A DNA stretch of 64,000 bases from a virus (taxonomy: Duplodnaviria; Caudoviricetes). A model generated the notes under the pieces. The model was given only the letters and a program-made list of their open reading frames with translations. It did not search any database and was not told where the DNA came from. The stretch spans positions 96,001 to 160,000 of IMG/VR virus record IMGVR_UViG_3300049182_000044; one strand, given 5' to 3'. Within the stretch, counting starts at the first letter, position 1. Every line of letters begins with the position of its first letter. Both the position numbers and the translations under genes were made by a program. This document shows, piece after piece, positions 13,289 through 24,498 of the stretch.

Positions 13289-13843
13289 ATGTCAGCCACT
13301 AACGAGTTGGGCGCATCAAAAGATGAAACCGTTGCGGTCCTCAAAGTCAAGGTCGACATTCTGACCGAGACTATCGGTGAAATCAAAAATGCGCTCAAAC
13401 GCATCGAAGAAATAGTGGGTGTGATTCGCATTATTGAAGTCCAGTCGAAGCAACAATCGAAGGACTTCGATAATCTTACCGCCACTGTTCAAGCCTTGAG
13501 TAAGAGTGTTGAAGAGGTTGAGGTCGCAATCAACAACTCTATTCAAGAGGGCGACTACAATACCGCTGAAGCAGCGAAGCTTGCTTTGCAAGAGGTATCA
13601 AAGAAGTTGAAAGACGTGTCCGAGAAGCTGGACAATCTTGAAAAGGATTGGAAGGAGAAGTACAACTTCGGACGCGGCGTGTGGTGGGTGATCTCGCTTA
13701 TCGCAGGCACTGTGATTGCGGCTTTGATGTACGTCGCTAACAGTAACTACACGAAAATCGAAGAAGTACACAATTGGATGACGCGAGAACGGATTGTCAA
13801 AGAAGTTCAGCAAGAAAGCAAAGTCGCAGAGTCCAAGCGTTAA
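13289..13843 (+). CDS. coiled-coil protein with one C-proximal transmembrane helix
   Basis: About 120 aa of heptads, then GVWWVISLIAGTVIAALMYVA. Confidence 0.75.
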   Translation: MSATNELGASKDETVAVLKVKVDILTETIGEIKNALKRIEEIVGVIRIIEVQSKQQSKDFDNLTATVQALSKSVEEVEVAINNSIQEGDYNTAEAAKLALQEVSKKLKDVSEKLDNLEKDWKEKYNFGRGVWWVISLIAGTVIAALMYVANSNYTKIEEVHNWMTRERIVKEVQQESKVAESKR

Positions 13844-13869
13844 TCCTTTAACTCCGTCTACGGCATAGG

Positions 13870-13894
13870 TCAGGTGCTTAATTGCACCTGATCT
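13870..13894. promoter_or_regulatory. palindromic element, copy 1
   Basis: TCAGGTGC-TTAATT-GCACCTGA-TCT, 20 nt before the PAS gene start. Confidence 0.5.
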
Positions 13895-13913
13895 CTTTAT
13901 AAGATGAAGAGTC

Positions 13914-15080
13914 ATGTCAACCCCGTTCAACGAACACGATTTACGGTCGAAAGAGGCGAAGAGTCTCCTTGATGATCTTGAAGAGATCAGGCGTTCTGCC
14001 TCGTCCATCGTATCAACCCTTGAAAGAGAAGTAGTACACAATCAATCACTTTTGAAGACAGTTGCTCACTTGGTCGGCGATAGCGTGCTGGTCGTTAAAG
14101 ACAATGCTGTGCACCTTGCCAATAAACAAGCAAGCAAACTGCTGGGACTTTCGGAATCATGCCTTGAGGGCATTAAGATCAACGAACTGTTCCCAAACAT
14201 CCTTGACGCTTTGAAGTCAGGCGAACATGAGAAGGCCATGCAGTTCCAAGCTAGCACGCCTGAACGTCAGAAAGTTAATTTGACTCTGACGAAGATTTCT
14301 GCACCGACACACCACAGCTTCGTGATCGTAGCTCGTGAGGGCAACGTAGTACAAGAATGCGTGAACAAGGGTACCTGCCAGTTCCAGTCGAACATCATCG
14401 ACGCCGTGCCGACGCCGTTGTTTTACACGGACATTAACGGACACGCCATTCATGGTAGCTCCTCGTTCTACGAAATGTTTGGGCTGTCCAAGCAACAGAT
14501 GGAAAAGCATACAGTCACTTCTCTCTTTTCCGAAGTTGTTGGCAAGCTGTTCTCTCCGCGTGAGCAGTTCCACGCGACTCCCGAACGTCTTGAACTTCGA
14601 GTGCATTTGCCCTGGCGCAATCGCGATCTGCATATCGTATTGCTCAAGACTGTTTTCAGAAATTGTGAAGGTAAGCCGATTGGACACGTCGCTACTATCT
14701 TGGATGCTGCTACAGCTCCTCCCGCGCTACCGAAGACTTCGACTAACATAGTTAAGATCCTGAATGGTTCGGATCAGCCGATCGCTGTAACGGGATGGCC
14801 TAACACGCGCATCGTTATGGCGAACAAAGCATTCTTCGACTACTACGGATACAACGAGAAAGAAGTTCTCGGAAGACATGTTTGTGACTTCTGCCTCGAT
14901 GAAACTCCTAAAGTCGGAGTCATGGAAGAAGCTTTCCTACACGGCGAGGACTGGGTACAGCAAGTACAGAGCAAACGTAAAGATGGTTCTGTCTCGCTTG
15001 ATCTAATCAAAGTAGTTCCAATCATGAAGGATAACGTCGAAGGCCCAGCCTACTGTATGTTTATCAAGCAGGGTAGTTAA
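13914..15080 (+). CDS. triple-PAS-domain protein without an output domain
   Basis: Three PAS-like units: VGDSVLVV...LANKQASKLLG; IIDAVPTPLFYTDING...FYEMFG; QPIAVT...MANKAFFDYYGYNEKEVLGR...RKDGS. Confidence 0.85.
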   Translation: MSTPFNEHDLRSKEAKSLLDDLEEIRRSASSIVSTLEREVVHNQSLLKTVAHLVGDSVLVVKDNAVHLANKQASKLLGLSESCLEGIKINELFPNILDALKSGEHEKAMQFQASTPERQKVNLTLTKISAPTHHSFVIVAREGNVVQECVNKGTCQFQSNIIDAVPTPLFYTDINGHAIHGSSSFYEMFGLSKQQMEKHTVTSLFSEVVGKLFSPREQFHATPERLELRVHLPWRNRDLHIVLLKTVFRNCEGKPIGHVATILDAATAPPALPKTSTNIVKILNGSDQPIAVTGWPNTRIVMANKAFFDYYGYNEKEVLGRHVCDFCLDETPKVGVMEEAFLHGEDWVQQVQSKRKDGSVSLDLIKVVPIMKDNVEGPAYCMFIKQGS

Positions 15081-15623
15081 ATGAACATCGTAACCTATGA
15101 ACAGGCACGCAACCTTATTCAGGACGGCGATTTGGTCTTTGTAAAGAAGGGCAAGTCGATCTGGAGTAAGCTGACGCAACTGGTAACTAAATCGGATGTG
15201 TACCATTGTGGTATCGCATTTTGGGTGCGCGACCCAGTGTATAAGTCAAGGCTGTTTATTGTGGAAGCTTTTCGAGGTGGGAGACGGATTGTCTCCCTTT
15301 CTTCTTACGCTAAGCATCCGATAGACATTATTGGTTCGCCTATTTCATGGGAAAAGAATTGCGACGAAGTGTTAGATAATACTGGACTCGTCCCATACAG
15401 TATTCCTGAGTATGTCTGGATCGGACTTCGAGAGCTGTTGCGCATTAAGCGTGATGATGCCGATGATGACTACGGTGAAGTATGCTCCAAGATGGTCGCC
15501 AAGTATCTTGTGCGCGGTGGAGTCATGCTTGAAACAGACATTAGTCCAGGTAAGCTCGAAGAGAAGCTGCTGCAAATGCAATTTGACTTCCGTTTCCGGA
15601 TCACGAATGATACTGTAAAGTGA
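15081..15623 (+). CDS. permuted papain-like (YiiX/YaeF-type NlpC/P60) amidase
   Basis: IQDGDLVF...VYHCGI...IVEA early, with the catalytic-type CSKMV late (His before Cys). Confidence 0.75.
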   Translation: MNIVTYEQARNLIQDGDLVFVKKGKSIWSKLTQLVTKSDVYHCGIAFWVRDPVYKSRLFIVEAFRGGRRIVSLSSYAKHPIDIIGSPISWEKNCDEVLDNTGLVPYSIPEYVWIGLRELLRIKRDDADDDYGEVCSKMVAKYLVRGGVMLETDISPGKLEEKLLQMQFDFRFRITNDTVK

Positions 15624-15658
15624 AAACATCAAACTATATAGCTTAGAAAGGGTTTAAC

Positions 15659-16141
15659 ATGACTAACGCAGCTACCTCAACACAAGAACAGATTGCTCTT
15701 GCCGAGGCAGTGCATGACGTTAAAATCACCTCGATGGTGAAAACGTTGACTGCACAGAGAGAGAATGCGCAGAATGCACTTGTCAATGCACTGGGTGACA
15801 AAGCAGTAGCAGAGTACAAGCTGCAAGAAGCTCTCAAGAATATCTCGGCACTGAGTAACGCACTGGCGCAGAAGAATCAAGAGAATGCTGAGTTACGCAT
15901 CCTTGTTCTCAATCTGCAGCAACAAGTTTCGGAGTTGAAGAACCCTCGACCCGCGGAACTCACTGCGCCCGCAGAAACTCCTGTTGCACCAGAGGTCGCT
16001 GAAGTAGAAGCTCCTTACGAGGAGGCTTCGGTTAGTTCTGAAGGCCATCCCTTTCGTGAAGAACAAGCCGAAACGCAAGAAAAAGAAAAAGGCATGTTCA
16101 CGAAGGTAGGAGAGGTAATCAAGAGCGCCATCCATCGTTAA
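15659..16141 (+). CDS. coiled-coil protein with a Pro/Glu-rich tail
   Basis: Heptad N-half, PAELTAPAETPVAPE low-complexity C-half. Confidence 0.7.
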   Translation: MTNAATSTQEQIALAEAVHDVKITSMVKTLTAQRENAQNALVNALGDKAVAEYKLQEALKNISALSNALAQKNQENAELRILVLNLQQQVSELKNPRPAELTAPAETPVAPEVAEVEAPYEEASVSSEGHPFREEQAETQEKEKGMFTKVGEVIKSAIHR

Positions 16142-16191
16142 CCTTGAATGTATAGCAGAAAGGGTACATTCATCTTAACAAAGGACTGGTC

Positions 16192-16653
16192 ATGCCTATT
16201 CAAGTAGCTTCGTTTTTGATACCACGGAATAACAATACGTGGTACATACTTGAGGACAAGTACCTAAAAGGCGGTTTGCGTGTTTGCACCGACGTTGCAG
16301 AACGCACCGCCATTCACGCAGCATCGCTGAAGCTAGGTATGTTGGTGCTGCTTCTCTCAGACAATAAGATTTATCAGTTGAAGAATGTTTCAACTAAGCT
16401 GTGGGAACCCTACGTATCTTCTACTCCTCAAGTAAACCCGTTTCATACACATAAACAGGTCGCGCCATCTGATGTGTGGACAATTCAGCACAATAAAGCG
16501 AATAGGTATTTCCAACATACCCTTTTCGACGACTCTGGCAAATCGATCTTACCCGATGAAATCACCATCATCGACAATAACACGGTTCAGATCAAATTCA
16601 TCATGCCGATCATGGGACACTGTGTCCTGGCATTCGACTCGGCAGCGGTTTAA
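16192..16653 (+). CDS. fibre-associated protein (LED.YLKGG N-module plus W.I.HN C-module)
   Basis: N-terminus paralogous to 21273 and 23887; C-terminus WTIQHNK as in 16906, 18647 and 19259. Confidence 0.8.
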   Translation: MPIQVASFLIPRNNNTWYILEDKYLKGGLRVCTDVAERTAIHAASLKLGMLVLLLSDNKIYQLKNVSTKLWEPYVSSTPQVNPFHTHKQVAPSDVWTIQHNKANRYFQHTLFDDSGKSILPDEITIIDNNTVQIKFIMPIMGHCVLAFDSAAV

Positions 16654-16669
16654 CTACCTCCAAATTTAG

Positions 16670-16713
16670 TGGGCAAGCGATTGAAGAACTCAGTCGTTTG
16701 CCCATTTCCTTTT
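16670..16713 (+). terminator. intrinsic terminator
   Basis: 15-bp stem TGGGCAAGCGATTGA/TCAGTCGTTTGCCCA followed by TTTCCTTTT. Confidence 0.7.
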
Positions 16714-16740: not shown

Positions 16741-16765
16741 TCAGGCGCTTGATTGCGCCTGATCT
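16741..16765. promoter_or_regulatory. palindromic element, copy 2
   Basis: TCAGGCGC-TTGATT-GCGCCTGA-TCT; compensatory change relative to copy 1. Confidence 0.5.
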
Positions 16766-16905: not shown

Positions 16906-18573
16906 ATGCGTATTCTTGGTAATCTCGTATTCGCAGGCCTCGGCCAAGTTCAAAACCTCCGCGTTGAGAACGTCGCCACTGATCCTGTAACCCCGATGGT
17001 CGGCCAAGTCTGGTACAACACTGCTGAAGGCTTCTATAAAGGCTATGACGGCACCACCGTCATCACCTTCGCTTCCGGCGGTAACACCGACCTGATCCTC
17101 GAAGAAGTAGATCGCATCGAAACTGCTGCAGGCCTGTCCGAGACCGGCACGTATGCTCAGCACACCGACACGAACTACATTAACGGCGCCACCAACCTGA
17201 AAGCAGCTGACAAGTTGCTGGATGCACAGCTGAAGACGGCAACCGATGCAGCTGCTACGGCTCAAGGCGCAGCCGATGACGCTCAAGCAGAACTCGACCT
17301 GGTCGAAGCTGCTGCTGGTCTGAACACCGATGGTACGTACTCGGCTCACACCGACACGAACTACATCAACGGCGCTGGCAACCTGAAAGCTGCTGACAAG
17401 CTGCTCGACACGGCTGTTAAGAATGCTGCTGACGCTGCTTCCGGCGCACAGAGCACTGCTGATCTGAAGGTTTCCAAGTCCGGCGACAGCATGACTGGCA
17501 ACCTGGCGATGCAGAACAACAAGGTCATCGGCGTTGCTACTCCGACTGACGCTGGCGACGCTGTCAACAAAGCATACGTTGACGCAATCGCTTCGGGTCT
17601 GACCTGGGAAGCTCCGGTGGACGGCGTTGTTGCTGACCACACTGCAATCGGTACAGCTCTGGTTGCTGGCCAGCGCTTCGCAAACACCACTGACGACAAG
17701 ATCTACACGGTCACCGCAGATGGTGCTGATGGCGCTACCGCAGTCTGGAATGCTGGCGAACTGCTGGTTGACGGCGCTGCCTTCTTCGACAAGTCCGTCG
17801 AAGCTGGTTACGTGTTCAACGGTGCTGAAATCGTTCAGTTCTCCGGCCTCGGTCAAGTGACTGCTGGTATCGGTCTGGTTAAGACCGGTAACGTCATGGA
17901 CATCAACCTGGGTGCTGGTATCGGCCAACTCCCGAGCGATGAAGTCGGTATCGACATCCTCGCAGCTGGTGGTCTGTTCCTGACGGTTGACGGCACTGCT
18001 GCTTCGACTGACTCGGCAGCTCAACTGTCGGTCAAGATCGACGGCTCGACCCTGTCCCGTTCGGGCTCGGGTGTCAAGGTTGCCGATGCCGGTGTTACCG
18101 AAACCCAACTGGCAGCTTCGGTTGCTGGCGCAGGTTTGACTGGTGGCGCTGGTGCAGCTCTGGCTGTTGGCGCTGGCACGGGTATCGTTGTTGACGCTGA
18201 CACGGTTGCGCTCGACCTGACTTACGCTGATGGCCGTTACATCAACGTTGATGGCGACACGATGACCGGCTCGCTGACTCTGGCTGCCGATCCTACGACC
18301 GCTCTGATGGCTGCTACCAAGCAGTACGTTGATTCGGTTACCACCGCACTCGAAGGTTCGACCGTCGTGTACGATGGTTCGGTTGCTTCTGCTTCCCACG
18401 TTGTTACCCACAACATCGGCTCGCAGTTCTGCAACGTCACCGTGGTTGACTCTGCTAACAAGCAGATCATCCCGGACAGCGTCACGTTCGACAGCGCTAA
18501 CCAGCTGACCGTGGCATTCAGCTCCGCCATCACCTGCAAGATCGTGGTGACCGGCAAATACGTCGCTGCTTAA
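16906..18573 (+). CDS. tail/head fibre protein
   Basis: SKSGDSMTGNL and AVNKAYVD fibre motifs; 62-aa tandem duplication (HTDTNYINGA); about 170 aa clearly paralogous to 43103..46354. Confidence 0.85.
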   Translation: MRILGNLVFAGLGQVQNLRVENVATDPVTPMVGQVWYNTAEGFYKGYDGTTVITFASGGNTDLILEEVDRIETAAGLSETGTYAQHTDTNYINGATNLKAADKLLDAQLKTATDAAATAQGAADDAQAELDLVEAAAGLNTDGTYSAHTDTNYINGAGNLKAADKLLDTAVKNAADAASGAQSTADLKVSKSGDSMTGNLAMQNNKVIGVATPTDAGDAVNKAYVDAIASGLTWEAPVDGVVADHTAIGTALVAGQRFANTTDDKIYTVTADGADGATAVWNAGELLVDGAAFFDKSVEAGYVFNGAEIVQFSGLGQVTAGIGLVKTGNVMDINLGAGIGQLPSDEVGIDILAAGGLFLTVDGTAASTDSAAQLSVKIDGSTLSRSGSGVKVADAGVTETQLAASVAGAGLTGGAGAALAVGAGTGIVVDADTVALDLTYADGRYINVDGDTMTGSLTLAADPTTALMAATKQYVDSVTTALEGSTVVYDGSVASASHVVTHNIGSQFCNVTVVDSANKQIIPDSVTFDSANQLTVAFSSAITCKIVVTGKYVAA

Positions 18574-18593: not shown

Positions 18594-18631
18594 GGGGACA
18601 CCTGAATTGTCGGGTGTCCCCTTCTCTTATT
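18594..18631 (+). terminator. probable terminator
   Basis: GGGGACACC.../...GGTGTCCCC then TTCTCTTATT. Confidence 0.55.
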
Positions 18632-18646
18632 AGCGGAGATACCAGA

Positions 18647-19246
18647 ATGGAATTTCATGGCAACATCAACCTGTTGGAGAATGACCTGATTGGTGCTGTG
18701 TTTGGCATCGAAACAAACTTTCCTCCAAATCCCCGTCCTGGCCGCTTCTGTTTCAAAGACAAGGTCCTTTACTTGTGCACTGAACTCGCAGGCGGTTTGC
18801 CGGTTTGGGTCCCCTTGACGCAGCAATTGACCATGCGTAAGCACACGCAGACGGTTGCGCAGATGGAGTGGACGATCAACCATGGCCTCAATACCTCTGA
18901 TGTGCTGGTTCAGGTTTACGATTCAGAAGGCAAGTGGGTCATCCCGGACACGATCAACACCTCGGTGTTCAATCAAGTTACAGTTTCTTTCAGCCTCCCG
19001 ATGACTGGCATCGTCATCATGCAGCGTGGCATCACCGAAGGCTCAGCGCCTCCGCTGCTGGCACATGAAGAAGAGTTCACTAATTCGGATACATGGGTTG
19101 TCAACCATGGTCTGGGTTACAATCCGATCATTCGCGTTATCGTGGGTGGTCAGGAAGTTCAGCCGTATAGCATCGTCCATAATTCGACAATGCAGACCAC
19201 GATCACATTTACTTCGCCGCAGACTGGTTCTGTTCGTTGCGTTTAA
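18647..19246 (+). CDS. fibre-associated protein with two W.INHGL modules
   Basis: ATG 18647 after GGAGA; WTINHGLN and WVVNHGLG repeats. Confidence 0.8.
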   Translation: MEFHGNINLLENDLIGAVFGIETNFPPNPRPGRFCFKDKVLYLCTELAGGLPVWVPLTQQLTMRKHTQTVAQMEWTINHGLNTSDVLVQVYDSEGKWVIPDTINTSVFNQVTVSFSLPMTGIVIMQRGITEGSAPPLLAHEEEFTNSDTWVVNHGLGYNPIIRVIVGGQEVQPYSIVHNSTMQTTITFTSPQTGSVRCV

Positions 19247-19532: not shown

Positions 19533-21254
19533 ATGGAGCTCCGGCTACAAAAATTCATTGACAGTATGGGAACGCTTTCGGACATCCGAAACCTTGATCC
19601 ATACAATCCGGTCATCCTGCAGATGGAACATCCGGTAACGGCGATGCAGTATGTGATCGTCGTGGCCATAACGGAACCCAGCTACATGGGTATCCCGATC
19701 AATGCTATCTGGGTTGTGCAGAATCCCCAGAGCAACTACTACAAGAAGGCACTCAAGCTGAAAGCAGTTGCACCGAATGCTATTCCGGATGCGTTGCCTG
19801 GGCTGACTCAGACGTGGATTGAAATCTTCACGTATGACGAAATCTTCTCCGATCCCCAATGGTACGACAACGGCTCGGGCGGCGGTGTTCCCGGCCCGAT
19901 TGGTCCTCAAGGTCCGGTTGGACCTCAAGGTCCGATGGGTCCGACTGGTTTGCAAGGTCCAGTTGGTCCTCAAGGTCCTGCAGCAGTCGTTGATTACGAC
20001 TTCATTATCGCTGAAGTAGTGAAGCAGGTAGGCGACGGCGGTACTCCTCAGACAGCCACGCTGGCAATCATGGGTGCTAACACGGTCATGGAAGGTGGTA
20101 CTGCTCAATATGCGGTCGAACTCACCATTGGCACGAACGCTCCGATGGCTATTACTGCTCCGATTACTCTCACCGGTACTGGTGCGACGATCAATGCTAC
20201 CAATCTGGTGACCGCGGCCGGCAACCTGACTGGCGATCAAACGATTACTCTGTCTGCTAGCTATACCTACAACGGTACGGCGCTCACGGCGACTAAGAAC
20301 GTGGTGATCACCAATGCTGCGTTGGCCTCTATCGCAGTCACTGGCTTGGGTACTAACGTATTCGAGTCGAAAACTGCTCAACTGGTGGCGACCGCAACCT
20401 ACGGTAACGGCGCAACTTCGACTGTGACCACTCAGGCAACGTACACGGTGAATCCGGCTAGCGCGGGTACTGTGAGCGCTGCAGGTCTGTTCACTGCGGC
20501 TGCTGTAGCGAGCGACACACCGTTCTCGATCACGGCATCCTACACTGAGGCAGGCGTAACACGTACCACCACCGTCAACAGCACGAATAAGAATCTGATT
20601 GCTCAGTCTCTGGCTATCTCTAGCGGCGCAACTACGGTGAACGAAGGCGGCACGTTGCAGATGACGGCTACCGTGACCCGCAATGACACCACTACTGCCA
20701 ACGTATCCTCCCAAGCGACCTGGACGGTTAGCGATCCGGCTGCTGGTACGATTGATGCTAACGGTATGTTCACCGCATCCTTGGTTGCGGCCAACACACC
20801 GGTTACGATCAGCGCATCCTACCTTCAGGAAGGCATCACGGTTACTGCGACGCGTAACATCACCGTCAACAATGTGGCTGCGGTTATTTATCCGTACTAC
20901 GGTGCGGCGGCTAGCCCAGGTGTTGCAGGCAAGACTGGTGAGTGGATCAAGTCTACTCTGACGCAGCGCGGCCCTAACGGTGATCGTACTGCAACCAACA
21001 TCTCCATTGATGGCGGCAATGCTCCGGGCAACAAGTTCCTGTTCTACGCATACCCGAAATCCTACGGCCTCGCTCAGTTCTTCGATCTCGATTCGCAGAT
21101 GTTCGGCGGCTGGGATGGAGCTGATGACCAATTCGGTCAAGGCACTAACGGCCCGATGGAGGTCAATGTTACTATCGACGGTCAAGTGGTTGTGTTCTAC
21201 CTCTACCAGTCGGATATGTACAACCTCGGTCTGACTCGCTGGAACGTCAGCTAA
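19533..21254 (+). CDS. virion protein: N-module, short collagen, Ig-like repeats, C-module
   Basis: [11 protein letters not shown] shared with 57807; GPQ triplets; Thr-rich Ig-like repeats; C-terminal GGWDGA module shared with 23401. Confidence 0.85.
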   Translation: MELRLQKFIDSMGTLSDIRNLDPYNPVILQMEHPVTAMQYVIVVAITEPSYMGIPINAIWVVQNPQSNYYKKALKLKAVAPNAIPDALPGLTQTWIEIFTYDEIFSDPQWYDNGSGGGVPGPIGPQGPVGPQGPMGPTGLQGPVGPQGPAAVVDYDFIIAEVVKQVGDGGTPQTATLAIMGANTVMEGGTAQYAVELTIGTNAPMAITAPITLTGTGATINATNLVTAAGNLTGDQTITLSASYTYNGTALTATKNVVITNAALASIAVTGLGTNVFESKTAQLVATATYGNGATSTVTTQATYTVNPASAGTVSAAGLFTAAAVASDTPFSITASYTEAGVTRTTTVNSTNKNLIAQSLAISSGATTVNEGGTLQMTATVTRNDTTTANVSSQATWTVSDPAAGTIDANGMFTASLVAANTPVTISASYLQEGITVTATRNITVNNVAAVIYPYYGAAASPGVAGKTGEWIKSTLTQRGPNGDRTATNISIDGGNAPGNKFLFYAYPKSYGLAQFFDLDSQMFGGWDGADDQFGQGTNGPMEVNVTIDGQVVVFYLYQSDMYNLGLTRWNVS

Positions 21255-23400: not shown

Positions 23401-23832
23401 ATGGGCTTAATGTCAATGATCTCGGTCTCGGTCTTCCGGACGAGTGAAGGTGTTACGTCTCCTGAGCCAACAAACATTCTACCGTACTACGGTGTATCAG
23501 CAGTAGTTGACCAAAGTGCTAAGACGGGTGATTTCATTCTAGCGTTACCACATCGTGGCCCGACGCCGGATCGTTTGAACCCGTCATTCATTTTGAATGC
23601 GCCCACTCCAGACCTTACCATGTACTACGCATATCCAGTTGCGTATGGTGAGGCAACGTTCTTGGATGTTCAAGCGAACTTCCAAGGTGGTTGGGATGGT
23701 GCGCATGGCGACTACGGCTCTACACTAGGTCCGCTGATTGTTCCGGTCACCATCGACGGTCATGTAGTTAACTTCTACTTGTACCAGACTGACTGGGAAG
23801 GCCTCGGTGAGATTGAATGGAGCGTAAGCTAA
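23401..23832 (+). CDS. stand-alone GGWDGA module protein
   Basis: PYYG...YAYP..YG...GGWDGA...TIDG...FYLYQ.D aligns with the C-terminus of 19533. Confidence 0.8.
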   Translation: MGLMSMISVSVFRTSEGVTSPEPTNILPYYGVSAVVDQSAKTGDFILALPHRGPTPDRLNPSFILNAPTPDLTMYYAYPVAYGEATFLDVQANFQGGWDGAHGDYGSTLGPLIVPVTIDGHVVNFYLYQTDWEGLGEIEWSVS

Positions 23833-23886: not shown

Positions 23887-24498
23887 ATGGCTATTCAAGT
23901 CGCCTCGTTTATAGTCCCCAAGAACAACAACACTTGGTATGTACTCGAGGACAAATACTTAAAAGGTGGCCTTCGCGTCGTGGCAAATGTCACGGAGAGA
24001 AACAACATTGACTCGCTTTCCCGTAAGGCCGCAATGTTGGTCATCACCCAGGACGATAAGAAAGTTTGGCAGCTCAATGCTGATCTGTCAACCTGGACAG
24101 AGTTCAAAGTGGGTGGTGGCTCTGCTGTAAGGCAAACCGTTCAGCATTCGACAATTGAGCTTCAACCGGGTGCGTCGGATGTATTCGCCTTGAACTTAGG
24201 GCGATCTGTTCTGGTGTATCACTTTGAAGTAGATACGCCTTGTACCGTAGAAGCTCACGGTAGTGTGCTGAGGGATGACTCGAATCCGTATAAGTTCGTG
24301 GCTACTTCAGACCATCTTGTTGATGACGGCTCGTCATTGATGACGGATGGAACAATCCTGCGAGGCCGGCGATATGCTATTCTCGCAAATACCGAGCCTG
24401 GGAATTCTGGCGACATCTATTTTCAGTTGACAAACAACGATGTTGTTGCCAAGAATGTTAATTTAACATTGACGTTCCTTCCGTTGGAAACCGTATAA
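23887..24498 (+). CDS. fibre-associated protein (LED.YLKGG N-module)
   Basis: MAIQVASFIVPKNNNTWYVLEDKYLKGGLRV is near-identical to the start of 16192. Confidence 0.8.
   Translation: MAIQVASFIVPKNNNTWYVLEDKYLKGGLRVVANVTERNNIDSLSRKAAMLVITQDDKKVWQLNADLSTWTEFKVGGGSAVRQTVQHSTIELQPGASDVFALNLGRSVLVYHFEVDTPCTVEAHGSVLRDDSNPYKFVATSDHLVDDGSSLMTDGTILRGRRYAILANTEPGNSGDIYFQLTNNDVVAKNVNLTLTFLPLETV

Follow-up and report, generated by a model that had tools for sequence, protein, structure and literature searches.

Locus and Gene Organization

The DNA analyzed here, hereafter the window, is a stretch of 64,000 nucleotides covering bases 96,001-160,000 of the 281,566-bp IMG/VR virus record IMGVR_UViG_3300049182_000044, which is rated 100% complete and represents an uncultured, distantly PaBG-like jumbo phage. 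Between its tail sheath gene and a block of tail-fiber genes, three consecutive genes encode a membrane coiled-coil protein (cc-TM), a soluble protein made of three PAS domains (PAS3), and a permuted papain-like enzyme (C92). Comparison with related loci shows that cc-TM and PAS3 constitute an obligate pair, with C92 as a frequent third gene. The cassette has not been described previously; it is a clade-specific, accessory variant built from known domain types.

A first-pass annotation of the window, made from the sequence alone, had proposed a phage-encoded trio of sensor, adaptor and effector at this place. The list of open reading frames (ORFs) confirms the three genes on the plus strand (Table 1). 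The PAS gene is indeed preceded by a single-pass membrane coiled coil with one transmembrane (TM) helix, and its TAA stop codon is followed immediately by the ATG of the C92 gene. The phage origin assumed in that annotation is borne out by the virus record itself, the sheath gene upstream and the tail-fiber genes downstream.

Table 1. Features of the sheath-to-fiber region, in window coordinates (nt, nucleotides; aa, amino acids; AF2, AlphaFold2).
Feature	Position (nt)	Strand	Residues	Basis or remark
cc-TM, 184-aa bitopic membrane protein	13289..13843	+		Coiled-coil ORF
cc-TM, TM helix	13679-13735	+	131-149	
PAS3, 388 aa, soluble	13914..15080	+		Pfam PAS in three stretches; AF2 model
PAS3, N-terminal helix	13932-14072	+	7-53	AF2 model
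PAS-A	14082-14339	+	57-142	AF2 model
PAS-B	14418-14705	+	169-264	AF2 model
PAS-C	14781-15071	+	290-386	AF2 model
C92, 180 aa, YaeF/YiiX-type permuted papain-like NlpC/P60 enzyme (PPNE)	15081..15623	+		Fold and invariant residues
C92, proposed catalytic His	15204-15206	+	42	Alignment to 3kw0
C92, proposed catalytic Cys	15483-15485	+	135	Alignment to 3kw0
Tail sheath gene, 551 aa	11587..13242	+		phrog_23 E 7.7e-102; Pfam Phage_sheath_1 and Phage_sheath_1C
25-nt palindrome, first copy: TCAGGTGCTTAATTGCACCTGATCT	13870..13894	+		20 nt before the PAS3 start codon
160-aa coiled-coil protein, acidic tail	15659..16141	+		Right-hand neighbor of C92, conserved in some relatives
153-aa protein	16192..16653	+		phrog_23630 and phrog_21918; N- and C-terminal modules common to tail-fiber genes
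Terminator-like hairpin, 17-bp stem then T-rich tail	16668..16706	+		Consensus scan only
25-nt palindrome, second copy: TCAGGCGCTTGATTGCGCCTGATCT	16741..16765	+		Upstream of 555-aa fiber gene

Conservation and Evolutionary History of the Cassette

The genomic places of nine PAS3 family members were examined, and further loci came from searches with the C92 family. The PAS3 gene is present in 14 distinct phage loci, the window included, and all of them adjoin tail genes of one jumbo-phage clade. Wherever DNA upstream of PAS3 is available (12 of 12 loci), a cc-TM homolog lies directly before it (25-37% identity, E 1e-9 to 1e-30), preceded in turn by the sheath gene, save in locus L028, where a 373-aa ORF stands between. 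The gap between the two genes is 10 nt or less, or the ORFs overlap, in seven of these 12 loci (L011, L012, L015, L019, L029, L032, and L033); it measures 70 nt in the window.

The C92 gene directly follows PAS3 in eight of the 14 loci, at a distance of 0-4 nt in the window, L014, L020, L028, and L035 and with a one-base overlap in L032; it is not found after PAS3 in the remaining six (L011, L012/13, L017, L018, L019, and L029). It also occurs without the pair in at least six loci, including the closest relative of the window phage. In L007/L008, the P0005 contig, and L009/L010, it stands one or two genes after the sheath with the pair absent, and distant homologs lie in unrelated contexts in L016, L034, and L036. 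Where the pair is lacking, both members are missing jointly (L007, the P0005 contig, and L009). Since cc-TM and PAS3 are never apart while C92 comes and goes, the former are an obligate pair and C92 is a frequent but separable third gene. Of the synteny predicted for a sensor trio, the complete order sheath, cc-TM, PAS3, C92 is thus kept in seven distinct phages, the pairing of the cc-TM and PAS3 genes is strict, and an obligate trio is excluded by the loci that lack C92.

In the jumbo phages PaBG, Lu11, and NCTB, none of the three genes occurs in the sheath-to-fiber interval, and 50,697 phage records searched by tblastn with PAS3 and C92 gave no match. A maximum-likelihood tree of sheath proteins unites 12 uncultured phages in a single, well-separated clade (support 100/99), leaving PaBG, Lu11, and NCTB outside; within the clade, the trio-bearing phages fall into three separately supported subclades. 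The closest relative of the window phage, L007 (87% sheath identity), has lost the pair and kept C92. Most simply, these sequences suggest that the ancestor had sheath, cc-TM, PAS3, and C92 genes in one cassette, from which C92 would have been lost repeatedly and the pair at least twice, with cc-TM never parting from PAS3. The loss counts are only approximate, because the deep branches of the clade are unresolved. C92 is a frequent and dispensable partner that was probably ancestral and is possibly translationally coupled to PAS3.

The Triple-PAS Protein

PAS3 scores well above the cut-offs of general PAS profiles: PF00989 reaches 70.2 bits (gathering cut-off 22.6), PF13426 62.4, PF08448 44.2, and TIGR00229 66.6. 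Scored singly in the genome scan, its units reach 34.9, 22.7, and 20.3 bits, the first unit lying just below the cut-off. In the AF2 model, computed from a 17-sequence family alignment (mean predicted local distance difference test score, pLDDT, 76.5; predicted TM-score, pTM, 0.36), the domains are confident and their mutual arrangement is not; the order of strands and helices reproduces the PAS fold, a five-stranded antiparallel sheet with helices, three times. Foldseek matched the model with probability 1.00 to structures of PpsR, DosP, MmoS, FixL, NifL, and LOV-PAS proteins. PAS3 has no TM helix, and a domain scan of its 388 residues found no domain besides PAS and no output domain. Pfam, the model, and Foldseek thus agree with the earlier description of genuine PAS folds devoid of an output. 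PAS3 is, moreover, the sole PAS gene detected by the scan of the 281-kb genome.

A HMMER search with PAS3 over 1.84 billion protein-cluster representatives returned 2,319 hits of cellular PAS type, nearly all of them multi-PAS sensor proteins. Its own family comprises 17 proteins of about 336-420 aa that align to the query from end to end at 21-28% identity and is seen only in phages, at the 14 loci described above. Identity to any cellular PAS protein is 22-33%, and the family members diverge equally among themselves. Because similarity to cellular proteins is so low and the members are equally diverged, the family appears from its sequences to be old and phage-borne, and not a recent copy of one host kinase. 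A word-based homolog search with PAS3 found only the query itself, and a search of viral contigs with the single protein gave no match. Fusions of PAS3 with its anchor were also sought: among the 149 hits listed, none carried a cc-TM-like region or a convincing TM helix. One candidate, P0083, considered as a tail-anchored multi-PAS protein, was rejected as an ordinary histidine kinase whose apparent TM helix is part of its HATPase_c domain.

The first-pass annotation had linked the PAS units to ligand, redox, or light sensing, which the residue pattern does not uphold as far as classical cofactors are concerned, neither a LOV cysteine nor a heme histidine being conserved. No His, Cys, or Trp is conserved across the 17 members; no column has His in half or more of them, as would be expected of a heme-type proximal ligand, and the only Cys found in at least half of the members (position 381) lies outside the LOV motif. 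PAS-C resembles phototropin LOV (E 7e-6) about as much as it resembles the cofactor-free hERG PAS domain (E ~1e-5). It was rejected as a LOV photoreceptor: it reads GRHVCDFCL, with Asp and Leu replacing the Arg and Gln of the LOV motif GxNCRFLQ, and this stretch shows no conservation within the family. The positions conserved family-wide correspond to structural PAS motifs and are densest in the PAS-B region (P166, G176, G181, S182, F185, G190, K245, and G257). Since no His, Cys, or Trp is conserved and the flavin-contact residues are missing from PAS-C, classical heme, flavin, or photoactive yellow protein (PYP)-type sensing appears unlikely; PAS3 may bind a small-molecule ligand or may serve purely for protein binding.

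In the locus L015 (3998-5000), and identically in L031, PAS3 is shortened to 283 aa comprising PAS-A and PAS-B. There, PAS-C has suffered an internal deletion and a frameshift, and its remnants are readable in another frame; the break is probably real decay, since two assemblies show it.

The Membrane Coiled-Coil Protein

In cc-TM, some 130 N-terminal residues form a coiled coil; the juxtamembrane motif WKEKYNxxRG, a single hydrophobic TM helix (Kyte-Doolittle 2.12), and a short variable C-terminal tail follow. Its homologs span 168-208 aa, and one TM helix lies near the C-terminus in all nine that were scanned. The family keeps the juxtamembrane motif together with an N-terminal one, VGVIRIxExQxKQQ. 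In the window protein, the 15 positions that precede the helix include four Lys/Arg residues and the 15 that follow it include one; the excess is on the N-terminal side in eight of nine homologs and the two sides are equal in the ninth. This surplus of positive charge before the helix suggests that the coiled coil faces the cytoplasm.

Scans of Pfam, PHROG, and NCBIfam gave cc-TM only weak matches of the coiled-coil type, and the word-based homolog search found only the query. The ESM Atlas was set aside as a source of relatives, as it offered generic coiled-coil look-alikes, and its DUF7201 lead is absent from the Pfam scan. For DUF2730 (PF10805), the L019 homolog scores 24.7 bits against a cut-off of 24.9 and the window protein only E 0.11; the L019 match spans the TM helix and some 30 residues beyond.

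The Permuted Papain-Like Enzyme

C92 adds a divergent new member to the YaeF/YiiX family. The Peptidase_C92 profile (PF05708) gives the window protein 23.8 bits against a gathering cut-off of 27, its homologs in L007 (71% identical) and L009 28.5 and 26.9 bits, respectively, and the NCBIfam YiiX model matches the window protein at E 4e-4. The structural model (pLDDT 91.5) fits 3kw0 (TM-score 0.67, E 2e-8), E. coli YaeF (TM-score 0.63), and 2if6 (E 1e-4), with further fold matches to YiiX and YebB and a weak one to DESI2 (probability 0.13). His42, Glu62, Tyr106, and Cys135 are invariant across 21 homologs; His42 and Cys135 align with His49 and Cys154 of 3kw0, and the Tyr was assigned by spacing only. 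The roles of these residues in the permuted order His, Glu, Tyr, Cys follow the structural study of the family (PMC3142127). The permuted papain type and its His/Cys pair, as given in the first-pass annotation, are accordingly well founded. C92 has no signal peptide and no TM helix.

The accompanying term "amidase" fares differently. YaeF/YiiX enzymes have a hydrophobic S1 pocket judged unsuitable for peptides, YiiX was crystallized with a fatty acid bound, family members are often membrane-linked or membrane-targeted, and cleavage of fatty-acyl-peptide bonds has been proposed for them (PMC3142127); permuted papain enzymes also include the PPPDE/DeSI isopeptidases (PMC3142127). The staphylococcal relative LnsA has a role in lipoprotein N-acylation (PMC7387801). 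In view of these lipid-type features, "amidase" is to be read as a family name, which denotes neither a peptidoglycan amidase nor a demonstrated activity. By analogy with these relatives, the target of C92 is probably an acyl bond, in a lipid or lipoprotein, rather than peptidoglycan.

Flanking Genes and the Variable Slot

The window sheath is 49% identical to that of the Pseudomonas jumbo phage PaBG, 47% to that of NCTB, 44% to that of Lu11, and 64-87% to the sheaths of the related loci. At nucleotide level, megablast against the 50,697 phage records found no similarity of the region to any phage isolate. In PaBG, Lu11, and NCTB, the gene after the sheath is gp272 of PaBG ("structural tail protein"). 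Matches to gp272 are confined here to the N-terminal part of a 573-aa fiber protein (19533-21254) and to a second place at ~58458-58763 on the minus strand; ~6.3 kb of genes separate the window sheath gene from its PaBG-type neighbor.

To the right of C92, the 160-aa protein is 54% identical to a 146-aa protein of L007, with weaker matches in L017 and L029; Pfam and PHROG scans assigned it to no family. The 153-aa gene that follows forms the right-hand boundary of the variable slot; nearly all related loci have it, with homologs of 38-63% identity in L007, L014, L017-L020, L029, L032, L033, and L035. Its modules are reused across the genes of the fiber block at 16192-16653, 16906-18573, 18614-19246, 23401-23832, and 23887-24498, the N-terminal module being the phrog_23630 match and the C-terminal one the phrog_21918 or phrog_16122 match. 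This sharing suggests a set of interchangeable fiber or adaptor proteins.

The content of the slot varies. In L011 (2270-2773), the gene directly after PAS3 encodes a homolog of Acb1, the phosphodiesterase that counters the cyclic-oligonucleotide-based antiphage signaling system (CBASS), scoring 43 bits against a cut-off of 27. In L007 (4156-5048), two small membrane proteins occupy the position where the pair would be: a 134-aa coiled coil with a C-terminal TM helix and weak similarity to cc-TM (E 4e-4), and one of 162 aa whose TM helix is N-terminal; no family was assigned to either. In L012 (75-755), a protein with an HDOD/HD domain (HDOD 77.9 bits) is encoded just upstream of the sheath gene.

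Transcription Signals and the Wider Genome

The cassette, the sheath gene, and the fiber genes share one strand, and the first terminator-like signal after the sheath gene is the hairpin that begins at 16668. Because of this common orientation and the lack of a terminator-like site before 16668, late co-expression of the cassette is suggested; the interval 13289-16653 may be transcribed late as a single unit, either together with the sheath gene or following it. A scan for sigma-70-type promoters did not rise above the shuffled expectation, and the middle/late promoter motif of Lu11, ACTGTAAATA, has no site near the cassette. The phage is present in one soil-metagenome DNA run, which is probably its sample of origin; no RNA runs holding it are listed.

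A 25-nt palindrome occurs in exactly two copies in the 281-kb genome, with none expected by chance. PAS3, C92, and the genes for the 160-aa and 153-aa proteins all lie between the copies, which differ at two stem positions in a manner that preserves pairing (T-A becomes C-G). None of the related loci fetched contains the palindrome; an operator, an RNA hairpin, and a recombination scar are all conceivable explanations.

Elsewhere in the genome, GGDEF and HDOD domains gave no match. Of the two HATPase_c matches, one is a GyrB-like protein and the other a GHKL ATPase lacking HisKA, so that no histidine kinase was found. The second match is a 557-aa GHKL-type ATPase (HATPase_c 30.6 bits) encoded outside the window at G000:C1:229424-231097, near the GyrB-like gene, and has neither HisKA nor topoisomerase domains. 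As to lysis genes, no match was found in the 281-kb genome to Pfam SLT, Phage_lysozyme, or VanY or to the NCTB lysin, in a search that covered few families. Glyco_hydro_19 was likewise without a match, but it had none in control genomes either and is therefore uninformative.

Proposed Function and Alternative Explanations

The strict co-occurrence of cc-TM and PAS3, their tight spacing, and their complementary architectures, an anchor coiled coil on one side and a PAS array with a long helix on the other, make a physical complex of the two the most economical reading. We infer from this that cc-TM, as a bitopic protein of the inner membrane, would hold PAS3 at the cytoplasmic face of that membrane, and that the two together would look like a sensor kinase reduced to its input half, with no catalytic output. 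Judged from the gene content, any output of PAS3 must pass through protein contacts, because no other PAS gene, GGDEF, HDOD, or histidine kinase was found in the genome. On this basis, the pair is tentatively viewed, with somewhat less than even confidence, as a membrane-tethered PAS adaptor that, through contacts with other proteins, would influence a late step of infection linked to the inner membrane; the leading candidate for that step is envelope breakdown, in its timing or its execution. A fuller version, in which the pair would be a checkpoint that reads the cytoplasmic state of the host through the PAS array and gates a late membrane event (lysis timing or release, for instance), with C92 as a novel type of lysis or envelope effector cutting acyl bonds of lipoproteins or lipids and not peptidoglycan, is considered distinctly improbable.

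Several observations weigh against a membrane-tethered adaptor acting on envelope breakdown. The cassette is accessory, since the related isolates PaBG, Lu11, and NCTB complete infection without it, and C92 cannot be a required effector, as it is missing after PAS3 in six of 14 loci. PAS-C is broken in L015 and L031, so the full three-PAS array is not always kept. The topology of cc-TM is predicted solely from a modest charge bias, and its similarity to DUF2730, below the cut-off, in one homolog, and reaching little beyond the TM helix, lends correspondingly less weight to a releasin-like role. No holin, spanin, or recognized endolysin lies near the cassette, and to our knowledge there is no peptidoglycan hydrolase of the permuted type to which C92 belongs. 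Finally, the Acb1 homolog of L011 shows that the sheath-to-fiber slot also holds counter-defense cargo, which points to a different role.

That different role is the alternative given the most weight, though it is unlikely: the pair, and separately C92, would be cargo that neutralizes host immunity or excludes competing phages. It would account for a slot whose content differs between close relatives, with two small membrane proteins replacing the pair in L007 and a bona fide Acb1 domain right after PAS3 in L011. It also fits the absence of the three genes from the PaBG, Lu11, and NCTB interval and the empty tblastn search of PAS3 and C92 against phage records. The kinship of C92 with the PPPDE/DeSI isopeptidases, with DESI2 as a weak fold match, allows a speculative version in which the enzyme would strip a lipid or ubiquitin-like modifier from tail proteins. 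The defense models of PADLOC returned nothing for PAS3 or C92 and, for cc-TM, only coiled-coil noise (12-18 bits in the coiled-coil region against the large LmuB, JetC, and Cas12c models); no known anti-defense family matches the pair or C92, and the cassette looks ancestral and broadly retained, unlike sporadically acquired cargo. Next in likelihood, and again unlikely, comes interference with host signaling, akin to the decoy proposed in the first-pass annotation, in which membrane-held PAS3 would heterodimerize with PAS or coiled-coil segments of the host's membrane sensor kinases, chemoreceptors, or cyclic di-GMP enzymes and jam or redirect their signals. PAS domains commonly dimerize, nearly all of the 2,319 cellular hits are multi-PAS sensors, PAS3 has no output domain, and the genome gave no HDOD, GGDEF, or histidine kinase; the lack of conserved cofactor residues fits a binding module better than a sensor, and L012 has an HDOD/HD signaling protein adjoining its sheath gene. 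Against such a decoy speak the age and phage-borne character of the family, which is not a copy of a specific kinase (22-33% identity to cellular proteins), and its place in a predicted late structural operon, unusual for host-takeover genes, which are typically early.

More doubtful still is a dedicated lysis cassette, in which cc-TM would be holin- or releasin-like, PAS3 a cytoplasmic regulator of antiholin type (as RIII is for the T4 holin T), and C92 an envelope-degrading enzyme set free at lysis. A membrane protein, a candidate regulator, and an NlpC/P60-superfamily hydrolase without a signal peptide are tightly packed in a predicted late operon, one homolog has the borderline match to the releasin family DUF2730, and SLT, Phage_lysozyme, and VanY are without a match in the genome; PaBG itself has been reported to lack a classic holin (PMC3886941). 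The parts are nevertheless not mutually dependent, since six of the 14 loci with PAS3 lack C92 and others keep C92 without the pair, and PaBG, Lu11, and NCTB lyse without any of them. The YaeF/YiiX family has a hydrophobic S1 pocket that was judged ill-suited to peptides (PMC3142127), the neighborhood contains no spanin genes, the endolysin search covered few families with Glyco_hydro_19 uninformative, and the DUF2730 match is both sub-threshold and opposite in TM placement. Very improbable, in turn, is a role in the virion or its assembly, with the pair as structural or assembly factors of tail or fiber and PAS-like folds as mere structural modules. The position between sheath and fiber genes and weak matches between cc-TM and PHROG families labeled "virion structural protein" or "scaffolding protein" agree with it; those matches, however, are located in the coiled coil and are probably owed to its composition, tail proteins do not usually have a TM helix, PAS3 is recognized by genuine signaling PAS models, and the genes are absent from the interval in related phages that have the same tail genes.

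Of the cytoplasmic sensor modules in bacteria, PAS domains are the most common, yet hardly anything is known of their use by phages; a PAS3 family with a dedicated anchor and no catalytic output offers a concrete two-protein unit. Should the pair indeed link the physiological state of the host to a late membrane event, lytic phage development would gain a sensory layer. If it proves to be accessory cargo only, it still delimits a variable slot between the sheath and fiber genes of jumbo phages, occupied by Acb1 in one relative. The YaeF/YiiX family, for its part, has no established function in bacteria, and the phage context of C92 may offer a clue to its substrate.

Comparison with Known Systems

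The closest structural parallel to PAS3 is the core of PpsR/CrtJ from Rhodobacter sphaeroides (4hh2, without its helix-turn-helix, HTH), which shares three consecutive PAS domains, helical linkers, a long N-terminal or linker helix, and the lack of an enzymatic domain. It is the best Foldseek match (~385 columns, E 6e-16), with a TM-score of only 0.27 because the domain arrangements differ. PpsR, however, is a DNA-binding repressor that ends in an HTH and has no membrane partner, whereas an HTH is missing from PAS3, and the likeness of the two in sequence is negligible (TIGR02040, the PpsR/CrtJ model, gives 16 bits against a cut-off of 275). PAS3 thus resembles PpsR in fold arrangement only and is not a member of its family.

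Among phages, the literature search yielded a single characterized PAS protein, VqmA of vibriophage VP882, in which one PAS domain and a DNA-binding output serve the lysis-lysogeny switch of a temperate phage (PMC8284805). The likeness is that of a phage-encoded PAS protein, VqmA reading a cue during infection; PAS3, by contrast, has three PAS domains, no output, and a separate membrane anchor, and is encoded in a predicted late operon of a jumbo myophage. BFVD holds other viral PAS proteins, such as the uncharacterized 536-aa "multi-sensor" of the Agrobacterium jumbo phage Atu_ph07.

C92 has the same fold and the same permuted residue order as the YaeF/YiiX enzymes of MEROPS family C92 (BcPPNE 3kw0, E. 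coli YiiX 2if6, and YaeF), from which it differs by its low identity (17-23%) and by the lack of a lipoprotein signal or membrane-targeting module. For cc-TM, a parallel is the releasin gp25 (DUF2730) of phage Mu, which is membrane-tethered, mostly cytoplasmic, and active in late infection (PMC9239132). Both are membrane-tethered coiled-coil phage proteins, mostly cytoplasmic in the case of cc-TM if its predicted topology is right; the Mu protein, however, has ~100 aa and an N-terminal TM helix, whereas members of the cc-TM family have 168-208 aa and a C-terminal one, and no SAR endolysin is known from the window phage. In phage T4, a soluble regulator binds the cytoplasmic part of the holin T and sets lysis timing, within a system that includes the antiholins RI and RIII and lysis inhibition. 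No sequence or fold relation to T, RI, or RIII was found, and T has a large periplasmic domain where cc-TM has a large, predicted cytoplasmic one; what cc-TM and PAS3 would share with the T4 system is its logic, that of a membrane protein joined to a soluble regulator.

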